A stretch of 19,759 nucleotides of DNA from Vulcanimicrobiota bacterium (GTDB taxonomy: Bacteria; Vulcanimicrobiota; Vulcanimicrobiia; Vulcanimicrobiales; Vulcanimicrobiaceae): contig PKZK01000126.1 of the NCBI GenBank assembly GCA_003133025.1, forward strand, positions 1 through 19,759. The letters run 5' to 3'. Made by a program: the position numbers. Shown here piece after piece: positions 12,001 to 18,000 of the stretch (position 1 is the stretch's first letter; each line of letters begins with the position of its first letter).

Positions 12001-15000
12001 TCGTGCGCGAGGCCGAGCGCGTCGGCCGTGCGTCCCGCCACGGCCGCCGTCGCAAACTGATAGGCCTTCACGTCGACGCTGCTCAGGCTTTCGCGCTGCA
12101 CGTCGTCGAGCGTGATCCGTTTCCCGCCCAACGCCAACTTTTCGAGATCGGTGCGCGTCGCGCCGAGATCGGCATCGGCCTTGATCAACGCCTCGAGCGC
12201 CGCGGGCTCCGCGGTCGCGCCGAGCGCCGCGAGCGTCTCGCCGATGAAGCGCTCGCGCACCGCAGGCGTGGCGGTCGTGTCGATGCGCAACACCTCGCGG
12301 CCGAGCAATTTCGCCAACGGCTCCGGGCGCTTCGAGGCCGGCGACACGAGGTCTTCGATGACCAGCGTGTTGCCCTCGGGTACGTGCGCCGCCGCCGCGA
12401 GCAATTTGCGCCGCGGCTCCGCGCGCAGATCGTGCGCGCCGCGCACCACCACCACCCGCGCCAAACCCAGAAAGGGCAACGCGGCCACGGCGGCCTCGAC
12501 GCGCGAAAACGAATCGAGTTCGCTCGCCGTCATGCGCTCCAAATTCAGGTCGCGCTCGGCCGGGTCGAGCCGGCGTTCCACGATCGCTTCGAGCGCGCGC
12601 TCCGCGAAGAGCCGCTCCACGCCTTCGATCACCACGAGTTTGCCGATCGGCGGCGACTTATCGATGAAGTCGTAGAATCTCAGCGCGCGTCACCCGCGGC
12701 GCGCAGCCGTTCGAGCAGGCCGAGCGCCGGCCGCGTTGCGAGATCCGGCAGCGACTCGAGGTAGGGCGGCCGCAGCACGCCGTATTCCGTAATGATGCCG
12801 GCGATCAGATGGCCCGGCGTCACGTCGAAGGCGGGNNNNNNNNNNNNGCGATGGCCACCGCATACGTGCCGATCTTGTTGGCGGTATCGCCGTTGCGTGC
12901 GATGCGGTCGGCGCCGACGATGGCCGCCTGGACGTTCTTGGCGCGCATCGTGGCCGCCGCCGCGCCGTCGACGATCAGCGTTGCGGGCACGCCCGCCGCC
13001 GCGAGTTCGAAGGTGGTCAACCGCGCGCCCTGCAACAGCGGCCGCGTCTCGTCGACGAATACGTGCACGCGTTTGCCGCGCCGGTGCGCCGCGACGATCA
13101 CGCCCAGCGCCGTGCCGTCGGCGCCGGTCGCGAGCGGACCCGTGTTGCAATGCGTCAACACCGAGCCGTCGTCGGGCATGAGCGCCGCGCCGAACTCGCA
13201 CAGCGCGCGATCGACCGCGCGTTGCTCTGCATGGATCGCGAGCGCTTCGTCGAGATAGGCGCCGCCCTCAGCGGCGAGCACGCGGTCCACGGCCCAGGCT
13301 AAATTGACCGCCGTCGGGCGCGCTTCGCGGATGCGCGCGGCCGCCGCCGCAAAGTCGTCGCCGTCGCCGTGCAGCGCGTGCGCCAGCGCGACGCCGTAAG
13401 CGCCGAAAGCCCCGATGCACGGCGCGCCGCGCACCGCCAACGTCGCGATGGCCGCGACCACGCCGTCGACGTCGACGGCCCGTTCGCGCACCAGGTCGTG
13501 GGGCAACACACGCTGGTCGACGTAGCCGACCGCGTCACCGTCCCACCAAACAGCCTCGAAGCTCATCGGCGCGGGAGTTCGCACGGAGTGCGCCCCGCGC
13601 CTGGAAGCGTCGGGAGGTTAGTTCAGACCCTTGCCGGCGCGTGCAGCGCGAAGCACGCGCGGCAGTAGACGGGCCGATCGCCGCGCGGCTTGAACGGCAC
13701 CGTCGTCGGCGTCGCGCACTGGGCGCAGACGGCTTCGTACATGTCGCGTTCGGCCGAAGACGACCGCTGCGTCTTGCGCGCGCCGCGGCATTCGCGGCAC
13801 CGCTGCGGTTCGTTTTCAAAGCCTTTTTCGGCGTAGAATTGCTGATCGCGAACCGAAAAAACGAACTGCCCGCCGCAGTCCTTACAGATGAGGGTCTTGT
13901 CTTGCACTTCCTGGGCCTCCGGGTACCGCACCGACCGGCAGGGCCGCCGGGAGATGCGAAAACAGACGGCGGACAAAGCGCCGTCATGCCCCCGAGTATA
14001 GGCCAAGTCGTGCCAAAGGGCAAGCGACAGTTTTGGGCCCGGACCGTGGCCCGTTTAGCCGACGGCGAGCACCGCCAGCGCGGCCAATGCGGCCTCGTAG
14101 CCCTTGTCGCCCTTCGCCGGGTCGGCGCGTTCTTCGGCCTGGGCCAGCGTGTCGGTGGTCAACACGCCGAAGCCGATCGGAATGCCCGTGGCCAACTGCA
14201 CGTCCATGATGCCGCGCGCGCATTCGCCCGCCACGAAATCGAAGTGCGGCGTCTCGCCCTGGATGACGACGCCCAAGGCCACGATCGCGTCGTAATGGCC
14301 GCGATCGATCAGCCGCCTTGCCGCGAGCGGCAGCTCGAAGCAACCGTGCACGCGGGCGAGGCCCACGTGTTGGACCGCCACGCCGCACTCGGCGAGCGCG
14401 CGCCGTGCGCCGTCCTCGAGCCAGTCCGACAGCCAGGGATAGAATCTCGCGCTCACGATGCAGACGCGCTTACCGCGCCCGTCGGGTAGCGCTCCCGGCT
14501 CCCGTGCAGCCCGCGGCTTCACGATGCCGCCTCGAACAGATGACCCATCTTCTCCCGTTTCGTGTCCATGTAGCGCGCGTTGTGCGGATTGGGTGAGATC
14601 TCGAGCGGCACCCGGCCCACGATGGCTAAGCCGTATCCCTCGAGGCCCACGATCTTCCGCGGGTTATTGGTAATCAGGCGCATTTCGCGCACGCCTAAAT
14701 CGACCAGGATCTGCGATCCGATCCCGTAGTCCCGTTTGTCGGCGGGCAGGCCCAACGCCAGATTCGCCTCAACGGTGTCCGCGCCGCGATCTTGCAACGC
14801 GTACGCCCGGAGCTTGTTGGCCAATCCGATGCCGCGGCCTTCCTGGTGTAAATAGAGGAAAACGCCGCGGCCTTCGCGCGCGATCAATTCCAGGGCCGCG
14901 TCGCGCTGGGCCGCGCAGTCGCAGCGCAGGGAGTGCAGCGCGTCGCCGGTCAGGCACTCCGAGTGCACCCGCACCAGGATGTCCTTGCCGTCGCCGATCT

Positions 15001-18000
15001 CGCCCATCACCATGGCCACGTGGGCCACGTCGTCGAGCGCGGTCTCGTAGGCCACGCCGCGGAAGTCGCCGTGCAGCGTGGGCAAGTCGAACTCGGCGAT
15101 CCGCTGGATCAGCTTCTCGGTGCGCATCCGGTAAGCGATCAAGTCCTTAACCGTTACCAACTTGAGCCCGTGGCGCTTGGCGAACTGGCGCAGCTTGGGC
15201 AGACGCATCATCGTGCCGTCCTCGTCCATGATCTCCACGATGACGCCCGCCGGATAGAAGCCCGCCAGCCGCGCCAGGTCGACCGCCGCCTCGGTCTGAC
15301 CCGCGCGCACCAGCACGCCGCCGTCGCGCGCGCGCAGCGGAAAGGTGTGCCCGGGGCGCAGGAAGTCGGAGGGCCTGGCGTTGGGGTCGAGCATCGCGTT
15401 GACCGTGGCCGCGCGGTCCTGCGCGGAGATGCCGGTCGTCGTGCGCCCGCGCGCTTCGACCGAGACGGTGAAGGCCGTCTCGTGCAGGGCGGTGTTCTCG
15501 TCGACCATGAGCGGGATCTGGAGTTCGTCCAGGCGCTTGCCGATGATCGGCACGCAGATCAGCCCGCCCGCCTCGCGGCGCATGAAGTTGATCGCCTCGG
15601 GCGTGACCATCTGGGCGGCCATCACCAAGTCGCCCTCGTTCTCGCGATCCTCGTCGTCGAGCACGATGACCATCTTGCCGGCCCTGATGTCGGCGATGGC
15701 GTCCTCGATCGCGTCGACGCAGCGCTCGCGCCCGTCGCCGAGCCCGGTGGCCAGCTCGGGTAGCGCCTTGGCCAGTGCCTTCATCGAGCGGAACGAGGGG
15801 CTGCGCCGCCCCGAACGCAGCAGCGAAATCGCCGCTTCGGTCAGTCCCGTTCGAGCGGCCAATTCGGCGGCGCTCAACCCGGCACGCTCCATGGCCGACT
15901 GCAGGCTCTCACCAAAGGTCGCGTTCACAGGCTTCTCCCCACGTGTTTACAAACGTAAATCCCTAGTTCCCGGATTTACGTTTGATAAGACCGTCGAACG
16001 TCCCGTTTCGTTTCCAAGGCACGCACGAGGCGAACCGGCGCCACCGACGGCCGGCCCTCAGCCGGCCGTCAGTCTGCTGAGACCTTGCTCCGCAAGGCGT
16101 CCGCCAGTTCGGCCGGCAGCGAAACCGAGCGGTTTCCCGTGTCGACGCACGAGGCGACGAGGGTTAACGCCGCCGTCTGAGCATTGTCCGATTCGCGCAG
16201 CACGTCGACCTTGAAGCGCACCGAATGCGCGCCGACGCCCGCCACCCGCGTGCGCAACGTCAGCACGTCGTCGACGGCAGCGGGCCGGAAGAAATCGAAC
16301 TCGAGGTGGACGTGACGCAACTGGACGCCCAAGCGCCGGAACGCGGAATCGTCGAAACCGATCGCGCGCAGCGTCTCGTGTTCCGCTGCCTCCATCAAGC
16401 GCGCGTAGGCCGCGAAGTTGACCGTACCGGACCCGCCGACGTCGGAACGCCTCACGCGTTCGTTCACTTCCCACTCATATTTCATAGGCCCAGGCGAGTT
16501 CGTCGCTGCTCGCGTCGCTCCCGCGAGCATACGCCGCAGCCGCGCCGAGGGCATATCGGGCCACCGGATCGATTTCGAGGTTGACCCGGTCGCCGGGACC
16601 CTTGAAGCCGAAGGTCGTGCGCGCCGAGGTTTCGGGAATGAGCGCGATCTCGAACCGGCCGGCGGCGACGGCCGCAACGGTGAGGCTCACGCCGTCGAGC
16701 GCGATGTAGCCTTTCTCCACGATGTACGCTTCCAGGCCCGCGGGCAGATCCAGCGCGAGGCGGTGTCCCTGACCTTCGGGCACCCGCGAGATGATCGGCG
16801 TCGTCGCGTCGACGTGCCCATACACGAAGTGCCCACCCAGCCGGTCGCCCAGCCGCAGCGAGAGTTCGAGGTTTACCCGGCCGTTGAGGTGCAGGCTGCC
16901 CAGCGTCGAGCGCGCGAGCGTCTCGGGCACCACGTCGAAGCGCACGATCGAGGCGTCGTGCTCCACGACCGTCAGGCAGACGCCGTCGATCGCGATCGAG
17001 TCCTTGTCGTCCACGCCTTCGGCGATCGCCCGCGGCGCCTCGATGCCCAGCCGCACGCCGCCGCGCGGGTCGCGCGCGAACTCGGCCACGCGCCCCGCGT
17101 GCGCGATCAAACCCCCGAACATCGTTTAGAGCCTCCCGGACACGAGCAGGTCGTCACCGAGCAGTTCGACACGCTCGAAACGAACCTGGGTGCGCCCGGC
17201 CGCTTCGGGCGCCAAGGCCGGAAGCGCGCCGGGCCCGGCCAGGGTCAGCGGCGCGATCAACCAGTCCAGCCGGTCGACGAGTCCGGCCGAGAGCAGCGAC
17301 CCGGCCAGCGCCGGCCCGCCCTCGCAGAGCACGCTCGCGATACCGCGCGCGCGCAGCTCGCGTAGCGCCGAAGCCGGATCGAGCCGTCCGTTCGCGCCGG
17401 CGGCCACATACGCCACCTCGGCCACCGCCTCGAGCGGCGCGAACGCCTCGCGCGACCGCGCCGGCACGAGCAGCAGCGTCGGCGCGTAGCCGTCGACGGG
17501 CACGAACACCCGCGCCGCCGGGTCCGGCGGACGTTCGCCGCAAGCCACGATGCGCCGATAGGGCACGCGCCGCGCCCGCGGCGGCCGCACGGTCAGCAGC
17601 GGATCGTCGCAGCGCAGCGTGCCCGCGCCCACCAACACCGCATCGTACGCCGCACGCAGGTCGCGCACGAAGGCGCGTGCCGGCTCGCCGGTGAGCCGGT
17701 AGTTGCCGGGCTCCGGCGCAACGTAGCCGTCGAGCGAGGCAGCCATCTTGAGCCGCACGTACGGCCGCCCCGCCGTCACCGCAACGGCGAAATCTTCGAC
17801 GATCGCCGCGGCCAAGGGATCGTGCGCGACCTCGACCTCGAGACCGGCATCGCGCAAGCGCGCCACGCCGCCCGCGGCCGTGCGCGGGTTGGGATCGAGC
17901 GCACCGACCACCACGCGCGCCAGGCCCGCGGCGACCAGCGCTTCGCTGCAGGGCGGCGTCGCGCCGTGATGGTTGCACGGTTCGAGCGACACGTACATCG

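Follow-up and report, generated by a model that had tools for sequence, protein, structure and literature searches.

A RibBA Enzyme Fused to an XRE-Type Helix-Turn-Helix Domain as a Putative Autorepressor of Riboflavin Genes in Vulcanimicrobiaceae

Introduction

BirA and NadR are bifunctional enzyme-repressors of cofactor pathways. Each is a pathway enzyme with an N-terminal helix-turn-helix (HTH) domain that represses pathway genes, and the enzyme-bound intermediate or cofactor is sensed by known mechanisms. Among regulators of riboflavin genes, RibR of Bacillus subtilis is a protein with an enzyme-like half; its target is the RNA of the FMN riboswitch, not DNA, and it is not known to catalyze a step of riboflavin biosynthesis. 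In the Archaea, the riboflavin kinase RbkR is fused to a winged-HTH-like domain, and its DNA binding is reported to be promoted by CTP and inhibited by FMN (Rodionova et al., 2017; PMC5397151).

Here, we describe a bacterial locus of related design, found in 19,759 nucleotides of a Vulcanimicrobiota genome (contig PKZK01000126.1, assembly GCA_003133025.1; hereafter the window) and compared with its relatives in the family Vulcanimicrobiaceae and beyond. An initial annotation of this DNA had proposed that its RibBA, extended by an XRE-type HTH domain, is a trigger enzyme that represses its own promoter, in place of control by an FMN riboswitch.

The HTH-RibBA Protein and Its Distribution

The HTH-ribBA gene (14519..15928, minus strand) starts with GTG, contains zero internal stop codons and encodes 469 aa. 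The extra N-terminal XRE domain was borne out by matches on this one ORF. Residues 5-56 (15761..15916, minus strand) are covered by Pfam HTH_3 (residues 10-56; 35.0 bits versus a gathering score of 23), HTH_31 (30.4 versus 27) and HTH_26 (25.3 versus 22), and the NCBIfam RibBA equivalog NF006803 matches residues 69-467 with 628.3 bits against a cut-off of 569. A linker (residues 57-74; 15707..15760, minus strand), delimited by orthologue alignment and a pLDDT of 46 for residues 61-70, leads to the DHBP synthase (RibB) domain at residues 75-266 (15131..15706, minus strand; Pfam DHBP_synthase, E 1.1e-89; TIGR00506, 261.7 bits). The GTP cyclohydrolase II (RibA) domain follows at residues 276-441 (14606..15103, minus strand; Pfam GTP_cyclohydro2, E 8.3e-71; TIGR00505, 253.9 bits), and both TIGR models exceed their cut-offs. 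Residues D91-D100 (DDEDRENEGD), C325, C336 and C338 are invariant in 47 database proteins; we take them to be catalytic, the former as the acidic DHBPS loop and the cysteines as the GCH II zinc site. By profile and catalytic motifs, the enzyme thus appears to be an intact RibBA, and a single match per genome in G000 and the closed genomes identifies it as the sole RibB/RibA copy.

In the AF2 model, the HTH head has a pLDDT of 73-91 across residues 1-60 and helices at 5-16, 20-27, 31-39, 46-55 and 58-61; the remainder is modelled with low confidence (mean pLDDT 60.9). Helix 31-39 is likely the recognition helix. The sequence of this region, GLTEsAISlLRsGRR.PS, recurs almost without change in 70 orthologues, among which the linker differs in both sequence and length. 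HTH columns invariant in the 47 database proteins include G28, S35, L37, R38, G40, R42 and P44. The best sequence matches of residues 5-57 to solved structures are a phage immunity repressor (8bny, E 9.4e-4) and the 434 repressor (E 0.005-0.02). Profile matches and alignment place enzyme and DNA-binding domain on one chain in all 70 orthologues and support the view that selection maintains the fused HTH as a conserved domain.

The fusion, first noted in 14 of 15 genomes of the family, in 1 of 1 of the sister family and in none of 7 with a long RibBA match from other families, kept this distribution in a larger sample. Of the 71 family genomes sampled, 68 carry it, with a RibBA match from residue 3-5, as do 2/2 genomes of the sister family, versus 0/9 in the next family (a count that takes in the unpublished genome G128). 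The carriers are uncultured bacteria from soil and peat that belong to a single order. Within the family sample, the RibBA of G018 is truncated by a contig end with the linker still present, and those of G077 and G145 lack the HTH. No close copy of the HTH was found elsewhere in G077 or G145, against E-values of 1e-16 to 1e-17 in the controls G144 and G011. In the tree, G145 falls within the fused forms (SH-aLRT 97), and G077 has no firm position because of its long branch.

The Promoter Palindrome

The palindrome C-TTGACA-nn-TGTnAA-G, for example CTTGACATTTGTAAAG, lies upstream of ribBA in 70/70 fused orthologues analysed, its start invariably 28-38 nt from the start codon. Its two halves are conserved to an equal degree within otherwise random sequence; the initial annotation had reported the palindrome as the only conserved block in the upstream DNA of 13 genomes. 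Positions 1-6, 9-11 and 13-14 each carry 1.6-2.0 bits of information, the outer C/G 1.2-1.3 bits, and the flanks less than 0.55 bits. A TAnnnT element follows the -35 of the palindrome at a spacer of 16-18 in 55/70 loci (background rate 1.3%) and ends 6-9 nt upstream of the start codon in 53 of these 55, which points to a leaderless mRNA in most orthologues. A consensus -35 box forms part of the site, so that half of its conservation reflects promoter function. The exact 16-mer was found in 36/81 family genomes (reversed control, 0/81), and HTH-ribBA directly follows the site in all 30 loci fetched, the unpublished G159, G164 and G165 included. Genome-wide, the 16-mer is all but unique to the ribBA promoter, and the alignments support a conserved, promoter-specific site with two halves.

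Both genomes without the HTH bear on the half-site that is not part of the -35 box. G077 retains TTGACA, TAGCCT and the start codon 6 nt further on, and its right half matches at 1/6 positions; the right half of G145 also matches at 1/6. The comparison supports a disappearance of this half-site in both lineages that lost the HTH. More broadly, a PWM score of at least 10 is missing in 15 of the 16 rows without HTH, and the one match, in L085, lies inside ribE.

In the window, the repeat was located where first annotated, with TTTACGTTTGTAAA at 15959..15946 (minus strand), 18-31 nt upstream of the ribBA GTG. It belongs to the proximal site (site 2), aTTTACGTTTGTAAAc (15945..15960, minus strand; -32..-17 from GTG), a degenerate form of the 16-bp family palindrome that ranks among the most degenerate in the family (PWM score 16.5 versus a median of 28.9). 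The earlier degenerate motif has one match in the window, and 0/200 shuffles contain any. A recount over the 3.35-Mb assembly returned three strict-motif loci (C99:2795, C130:3779 and the ribBA promoter), the number first reported. That the last is the sole intergenic copy depends on calling the long 448-aa and 396-aa open frames around the other two (GC3 about 0.81-0.82) coding from length and composition only, as Pfam named neither above its cut-off.

A second, distal site (site 1; 15974..15989, plus strand; 14-nt core at 15975-15988) carries the same motif with 2 mismatches, inverted, its centre 29 bp from that of site 2. This site is new to this analysis, as is the IS1595-type element abutting the palindrome that is discussed below. 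The overlap of the site with a -35 box, claimed initially for this promoter, holds in relatives by the TAnnnT register; the window has no -10 box at the correct spacing from site 2, and a consensus promoter scan upstream of ribBA found no promoter. By eye, TTATCA (15988-15983) and TAGGGA (15965-15960), 17 nt apart, form a candidate promoter (15960..15988, minus strand), in which site 1 might coincide with the -35 and site 2 with the start of transcription. A Shine-Dalgarno-like GGGGAG, recognized by reading the sequence, stands 6 nt before GTG (15935..15940, minus strand), and the mRNA of this genome seems to be leadered, unlike that of most relatives.

Predicted Control of ribBA and ribH

Downstream, ribH for lumazine synthase (14055..14522, minus strand; Pfam) overlaps the ribBA stop by 4 nt, and the order HTH-ribBA, ribH recurs in 30/30 loci having 1.5-kb flanks; the two genes are likely co-transcribed. 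Upstream on the ribBA strand lie ribD (17126-18370, minus strand), ribE (16475-17122, minus strand) and a gene for a 4HBT/YbgC-like thioesterase (16069-about 16470, minus strand), and within the window the motif was found upstream of none of them. The predicted regulon comprises ribBA-ribH only; by comparative inference, the putative operator sits on this promoter of same-pathway genes in 70/70 orthologues. Two additional targets were considered and rejected: the G160-type aldo/keto reductase has the site in 0/30 orthologues, and the C206 reductase of the genome under study lacks it at its one clear orthologue (G138, 76% identity).

The conserved HTH, the two-halved promoter-specific site and the loss of the right half along with the HTH make autorepression of ribBA-ribH by HTH-RibBA the most economical reading, and we regard it as moderately probable. 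The protein would serve the cell both as its sole RibB/RibA enzyme and as a transcription factor. Its XRE-type heads, paired through the dimeric enzyme body, would bind the palindrome, which spans the -35 box of the ribBA-ribH promoter and the initial half of its spacer (centre near -29.5). Binding would exclude RNA polymerase and thereby repress the protein's own synthesis. In most genera, a leaderless transcript would begin at the start codon of the HTH; the window and its closest relatives have a pair of inverted sites with a 29-bp spacing. RNA-library contigs did not extend across the promoter. One gain and two losses underlie the link between HTH and site.

Of the original proposal, autorepression is thus strengthened by the conserved HTH, the site and the right-half decay, and the riboswitch replacement is weakened. 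A covariance model search (RF00050) gave no FMN riboswitch at E<=1 in the window, none in the genome under study (80% complete) and, with stricter filters, none in 151 genomes of the phylum, HTH-less families included; 7 of 14 control genomes had a match. The initial annotation had likewise not found it in the phylum. Because the search was also negative where RibBA has no HTH, the HTH is not a required substitute for the riboswitch.

The label "trigger enzyme" implies DNA binding that is modulated by metabolites, and substrates or products of RibBA may have such effects. A variant of the favored explanation, compatible with it, dispenses with metabolite sensing: HTH-RibBA would be a plain autorepressor whose binding is set by protein concentration alone and buffers the RibBA level without reporting the status of flavin or substrate. 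The restriction of the regulon to its own operon and the survival of HTH-less families without an FMN riboswitch suit this variant, as does the short, variable, low-confidence linker, which is more in keeping with a tethered head than with rigid allosteric coupling. Conversely, a head placed on the enzyme, and not kept as a separate small repressor, lends itself to ligand control, as reported for archaeal RbkR (PMC5397151). We consider the variant possible, if somewhat unlikely.

Paired Sites and Other Readings of the Palindrome

Paired sites 28-29 bp apart also occur in L003, L004, L006 and L008, whereas 61/70 loci have a single site only. In the window and its nearest relatives, the pair lies between ribBA and the thioesterase gene, and the 29-bp spacing of sites 1 and 2 does not correspond to an integral number of helical turns. 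Together, the two sites make a perfect inverted repeat of 13 bp around a 9-nt loop (15950..15984, minus strand), which would form a hairpin if transcribed (-21.3 kcal/mol, z -4.74; equally stable in 0/200 shuffles). The pair might therefore act mainly as a hairpin or cruciform, that is, as an insulator, pause or processing site before ribBA. Similar hairpins of 13-16 bp in the four relatives named above agree with this, as do the ribD-ribE-thioesterase genes upstream on the same strand. The arms co-vary between genomes, in 3/4 informative cases including the central dinucleotide, and complementarity at this presumably uncontacted position is equally compatible with two operators, a hairpin or a recent duplication. 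However, a T-run is missing, the terminator scan was negative, the arms of L006 mismatch precisely at the central dinucleotide, and each arm copies the family-wide putative operator that most loci carry once. A primarily structural role is thus unlikely, and it would not exclude an operator role.

It is more doubtful still that an unlinked transcription factor binds the palindrome while the HTH serves other DNA, protein contacts or no function as a conserved passenger. The connection of HTH and site is a phyletic correlation built on few independent events, and the genomes encode other XRE proteins, such as G144:C1:900505 with 47% identity to the head. Such a factor would be at odds with the near-restriction of the strict 16-mer to the ribBA promoter and with the decayed right half in both HTH-less genomes. 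Moreover, no other conserved regulator gene lies beside ribBA in 70 loci, and a TetR gene near ribBA has a different palindrome of its own.

A mobile element is also tied to the palindrome, and another protein may for this reason recognize it too. In relatives, the element is assigned to the IS1595 family by a DDE transposase with an N-terminal zinc ribbon (PF12762 and PF12760; NF033547, 187 bits versus a cut-off of 75). Its two ends share ..CAGGTATATC(A/G)TC, and a mini-element is present in L054. IS ends (..CAGGTATATCATC) adjoin the palindrome at 18/70 ribBA sites, and the transposase gene lies beside a palindrome in G147, G148, G118 and G192, at 1-2 copies per genome. Additional palindromes occur in G118, G192, G151 and G160; they are flanked by an IS end on at least one side, and their central dinucleotide equals that of the ribBA site in the same genome. 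That the palindrome is simply an end or target of this element, bound by its transposase and doubling as a -35 box with the HTH unrelated, is nevertheless very improbable, given that hosts do not conserve IS targets, that 52/70 loci have no IS-end module and only 9/116 a transposase match, that the two half-sites and their fixed spacing from the start codon are nonetheless retained at all of them, that part of the palindrome recurs as a 12-nt direct repeat on either side of the G147 element, which fits insertion into a pre-existing site, and that the similarity of HTH and transposase is not significant (E 0.15).

Comparison with Known Systems

As a predicted autorepressor, HTH-RibBA would serve the same end as the FMN riboswitch, namely feedback on riboflavin genes, although the riboswitch, the usual bacterial control of rib genes, is RNA-based and ligand-sensing. 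RibR likewise differs in its RNA target, as opposed to the DNA target predicted here. In DNA recognition, the closest counterparts are 434 repressor/Cro and the phage immunity repressors, which share the XRE family, the five-helix head and a palindrome of ~14-16 bp overlapping their own promoter. These are small, stand-alone proteins with dimerization parts of their own, whereas HTH-RibBA would dimerize via its enzyme body. In overall design, the protein resembles BirA and NadR as a pathway enzyme with an N-terminal HTH, albeit of a different HTH family.

RbkR differs in several respects (Rodionova et al., 2017; PMC5397151). It is an archaeal kinase with a winged HTH, compared with a bacterial RibB and RibA carrying an XRE/434-type head; its regulon spans biosynthesis and transport genes, compared with the predicted ribBA-ribH only; and its ligand control is proven, compared with a possible one here. 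The two systems nonetheless have three features in common: a single polypeptide that joins an enzyme of the riboflavin pathway to a DNA-binding domain, operators predicted by comparative genomics that include the regulator's own gene, and occurrence in lineages without FMN riboswitch control.

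The fused gene and its cluster

The initial annotation described a RibBA with an extra N-terminal XRE-family helix-turn-helix (HTH), and both Pfam and NCBIfam support a single ORF in three parts. The HTH-ribBA ORF (14519-15928, minus strand) starts with GTG and encodes 469 aa. Its XRE-type HTH, referred to here as the head, matches HTH_3 at residues 10-56 (35 bits vs a cut-off of 23) as well as HTH_31 and HTH_26, and a linker of ~18 residues separates it from the DHBP_synthase (residues 75-266) and GTP_cyclohydro2 (residues 276-441) domains. The RibBA part is complete, as judged by the equivalog profile NF006803 (628 bits vs a cut-off of 569, residues 69-467). 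The stop codon of ribBA is overlapped by ribH over 4 nt, and ribD, ribE, and a YbgC-like thioesterase gene lie upstream of HTH-ribBA on the same strand. With rib genes on both sides, HTH-ribBA thus stands within the rib cluster, behind a gap of 140 nt.

The gene between ribE and HTH-ribBA (16069-16470, minus strand) encodes a YbgC/FadM-like 4HBT thioesterase, and a thioesterase gene occupies the same place in extracted loci L003, L011 (sister family), L021, L024, and L033. The order ribD-ribE-thioesterase-[HTH-ribBA]-ribH, which is present in the sister family and in several genera, seems to be ancestral, and ribH follows HTH-ribBA in 30/30 loci with long flanks. Two further observations concern the flanks of the cluster. 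On the 5' side of ribD (18300-18700, minus strand), the frames run on in the same strand with no obvious gap or promoter, comprising a phosphoribosyltransferase-like end and a small ORF beginning MKAVWNGTVIAES. At 12680-13584 (minus strand), two ORFs that overlap in different frames (12820-13584 and 12680-13201) correspond to consecutive portions, positions 34-202 and 255-280, of one IF-2B family profile; they may represent one gene with a frameshift or an assembly error.

Distribution and conservation of the head

A protein search with HTH-RibBA across 151 sampled genomes of the phylum found RibBA in all 71 other genomes of the family, with matches starting at residue 3-5, and hence including the head, in 68. 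In genome G018, the contig ends 30 nt past the match and a linker of the fused type is still visible; in G077 and G145, the head is truly absent. Both genomes of the sister family of the same order carry the fusion (G055 and G221). In the next family of the class, RibBA is unfused in 9/9 genomes, with ribBA directly behind ribE (this count includes the unpublished genome G128), and in more distant families it is unfused or split. Within the 151 genomes, the fusion is confined to one order. When 5.8 billion proteins were searched with residues 1-75, 78 matching proteins were obtained, each with RibB or RibBA domains; 75 of them bear a precomputed HTH_3 annotation, and the source names read simply 'bifunctional DHBP synthase/GTP cyclohydrolase II'. 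Full-text literature searches outside subscription journals and supplements yielded no report of an HTH-RibBA fusion. In one locus (L073, contig C50 of G150), the RibBA match is split into residues 5-172 and 262-466 with the pieces only ~70 nt apart, which would mean either that ~90 residues inside the DHBP synthase domain are deleted or that the assembly is faulty.

Among 70 orthologues, helix 3 and the following loop (GLTEsAISlLRsGRR.PS) are almost invariant, and the linker varies in both sequence and length. To judge from these alignments, the head is under selection. The solved proteins nearest to it by sequence are a phage immunity repressor and the 434 repressor. An AF2 model gives the head a pLDDT of 73-91 over residues 1-60, with helices at 5-16, 20-27, 31-39, and 46-55. 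The full-length model, built on a shallow alignment of 47 close relatives (mean pLDDT 60.9, pTM 0.46), was set aside as a guide to the placement of the heads on the dimer, its enzyme part being unusable and only the head confident.

A conserved palindrome at a predicted leaderless promoter

Upstream DNA was compared for 70 fused orthologues (the window's own, 68 from the family, and one from the sister family). A motif is present in 70/70, beginning 28-38 nt, and mostly 34-38 nt, ahead of the start codon. When the sequences are aligned on this motif, the block that stands out as conserved is the 16-bp palindrome C-TTGACA-nn-TGTnAA-G (consensus duplex CTTGACATTTGTAAAG), whose left half is the -35 hexamer. 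Positions 1-6, 9-11, and 13-14 each hold 1.6-2.0 bits of information and the outer C/G 1.2-1.3 bits; the central dinucleotide, position 12, and all flanks fall below ~0.5 bits. Since both arms carry similar information, the right half is conserved as strongly as the -35 hexamer in surroundings that are randomised.

Behind the motif, 55/70 loci have a TAnnnT box with a spacer of 16-18 (background rate in the same loci, 1.3%). The distance from the end of this box to the first base of the start codon is 6-9 nt in 53 of these 55 loci and exactly 6 nt in 38. On sequence grounds, this geometry is that of a leaderless mRNA beginning at the HTH start codon, which provides independent evidence for translation of the head and would give the phylum a well-defined leaderless promoter. 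The centre of the site, at about -29.5, would suit a repressor, and spacers of 16-18 suggest that the arrangement is not of the MerR type. A reading of the right half as part of a divergent promoter was rejected because the TATATC module stands too close, at a spacing of 11-13 nt, and many loci have an upstream gene on the same strand (by a crude ORF heuristic, 15 same-strand, 26 divergent, and 29 undecided).

The two family members without the head bear on the function of the right half. In G077, the TTGACA hexamer, a TAGCCT box, and an ATG 6 nt on are all kept, and the right half retains 1/6 matches; in G145, ribBA lies behind ribE, and the right half likewise retains 1/6. A search for the head elsewhere in the genome gave a best match in G077 of E 0.007 at 29% identity (controls, E 1e-16 to 1e-17) and no match anywhere in G145, so the head was lost rather than split off. 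A maximum-likelihood tree of the RibBA core (a quick IQ-TREE search from which L079 was omitted, its extracted piece being too short) nests G145 among the fused forms with an SH-aLRT of 97 and places G077 as a long branch within the fused group, its position there not fixed. Among rows lacking the HTH, 15/16 have no PWM hit of at least 10, and the sole hit lies inside ribE. By computation, the site is lost together with the head, and the two lineages without head and half-site serve as natural controls.

Specificity of the site

As initially annotated, the strict motif occurs at three loci in the window's own assembly, at ribBA and at two others. The latter lie inside long open frames with coding-like GC3, neither of which is named by Pfam. 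The exact 16-mer occurs in 36/81 genomes of the family, usually once per genome, and a reversed control pattern in 0/81. HTH-ribBA directly follows the site in all 30 loci fetched for 16-mer matches (including those of the unpublished genomes G159, G164, and G165). Computationally, the fused gene carries the site and the site is specific to it.

Several candidates for further targets were rejected. In G151 (L119:512) and G160 (L120:1580), a perfect palindrome beside an insertion sequence (IS) end precedes an aldo/keto reductase gene by ~30-500 nt; the site is found in 0/30 orthologous loci of other genomes (related tallies include the unpublished G128 and G206). In the window's own genome, contig C206 (4262-4277, L122) carries ATTGACATTTGTAACC followed 17 nt on by TATGCT, also upstream of an aldo/keto reductase gene. 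Its PWM score of 17.2 is above that of the own ribBA site, and the sole clear orthologue (G138, 76% identity) has no site before it; we treat this copy as probably a chance or recent one. An apparent site at an MFS transporter gene (G153, contig C227) is actually a second ribBA 5' end, the contig opening with the reverse complement of the first codons of the HTH. A different, 26-bp palindrome, ATACTTGAAACG-nn-CGTTTCAAGTAT, was observed in L012, L013, L016, L018, L020, L025, and L030, ~60-100 nt upstream of the RibBA site and ahead of a divergent TetR-family gene. Behind the latter comes a gene for an MFS transporter with 54% identity to the product of the MFS gene beside ribBA in G153.

An IS1595-type element at the palindrome

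In 18/70 loci, a module ending in CAGGTATATCATC directly abuts the palindrome. This module is the terminus of an element of the IS1595 family, the transposase of which contains PF12762 and PF12760 and matches NF033547. The transposase lies beside a palindrome in one or two copies per genome in G147, G148, G118, and G192, and near ribBA in only 9/116 loci; relative to ribBA, the element is divergent in L048 and co-directional in L090. The association of element and palindrome extends over several genera and was noted at L118:3980-4025 (G118), L117:5205 and 9740 (G192), L153:160-2415 (G147), and in the upstream region of L054; one IS end carries three TTTATGGGCA repeats. In G147, 12 nt of the palindrome are directly repeated on both sides of the element, and the 46-nt mini-element of L054 is flanked by the same kind of repeat. 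Insertion of the element appears to be site-specific, within or next to the RibBA palindrome, a predicted operator, which may be either its target or part of its end. It may exemplify an insertion sequence that targets the operator of a transcription factor.

Extra palindromes are few in any one genome and occur in G118, twice in G192, and before the aldo/keto reductase genes of G151 and G160. Each is bordered by an IS end on one side or both, and its central dinucleotide is that of the ribBA site in the same genome. We read them as probable recent IS-associated copies rather than an old regulon. IS insertion does not account for the fact that, in all 70 hosts, the two half-sites are both kept and stand at a constant distance from the start codon. 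Derivation of the HTH from the IS transposase was also dismissed, the similarity being not significant (E 0.15).

The two-site layout of the window

In the window, TTTACGTTTGTAAA lies as annotated at 15959-15946, 18-31 nt before the GTG and within the 140-nt gap. The degenerate motif has one match in the window, and any match occurs in 0/200 shuffles. The initial annotation lacked a second copy, inverted and with two mismatches, at 15975-15988. The proximal copy (site 2; 15945-15960, minus strand) and the distal one (site 1; 15974-15989, plus strand) together form a perfect 13-bp inverted repeat with a 9-nt loop (RNA fold -21.3 kcal/mol, z -4.74). The window and its nearest relatives depart in layout from the other family members. 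Their sites are degenerate, that of the window scoring 16.5 by PWM vs a median of 28.9. Among these eight loci (L001-L008), none has a TAnnnT box in register, and in five (L001, L003, L004, L006, and L008) a pair of inverted sites 28-29 nt apart can fold into a hairpin of 13-16 bp.

As GGGGAG stands 6 nt before the GTG, the mRNA of the window is probably leadered. By eye, TTATCA-17-TAGGGA would make site 1 coincide with the -35 box and site 2 with the transcription start, a promoter rated weak because a consensus promoter/terminator scan of 15850-16150 found nothing. Four metatranscriptome runs, of which two look like one data set filed twice and in which DNA carry-over is possible, gave only short contigs, which fall within ribH, the 3' portion of ribBA, and the thioesterase gene. 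These were discarded as evidence for a transcription start, as none covers the promoter or the HTH.

Interpretation and comparison with known systems

The most economical reading of HTH-RibBA together with its palindrome is autorepression, which we consider reasonably probable. As a dimer, HTH-RibBA would bring a pair of XRE heads to the palindrome that covers the -35 box of the ribBA-ribH promoter; DNA binding, repression, and this geometry are what we infer. A plain autorepressor governed by its own concentration fits the data as well as one that would respond to a metabolite.

A more elaborate proposal, in which RibBA is a true trigger enzyme and its operator is also a landing mark for the IS1595-type element, strikes us as rather unlikely. 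Here, occupation of the active sites by GTP, ribulose 5-phosphate, or products would set how the tethered XRE-type heads clamp onto the operator of the leaderless ribBA-ribH mRNA. The enzyme itself would thereby sense vitamin B2 flux at the committed steps, as a protein-only bacterial counterpart of the FMN riboswitch. The operator, possibly with bound protein, would mark the landing place of the element, which would have inserted at the same base, in both orientations, and in different genera, carrying operator copies to other genes.

The initial annotation went further and cast the fused enzyme as a substitute for the FMN riboswitch. In the window, neither this riboswitch nor any other notable Rfam family was found. 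The same riboswitch search that was positive in 7/14 control genomes found it in 0/151 genomes of the phylum; this set includes families with a headless RibBA, and substitution in the form proposed is not supported.

The FMN riboswitch is the textbook control of riboflavin synthesis in Bacteria, and protein-based control of riboflavin is known from Archaea, in the form of RbkR. If autorepression by HTH-RibBA is true, a bacterial committed-step enzyme would itself carry the repressor head, conserved across one order of a little-studied, mostly uncultured phylum.
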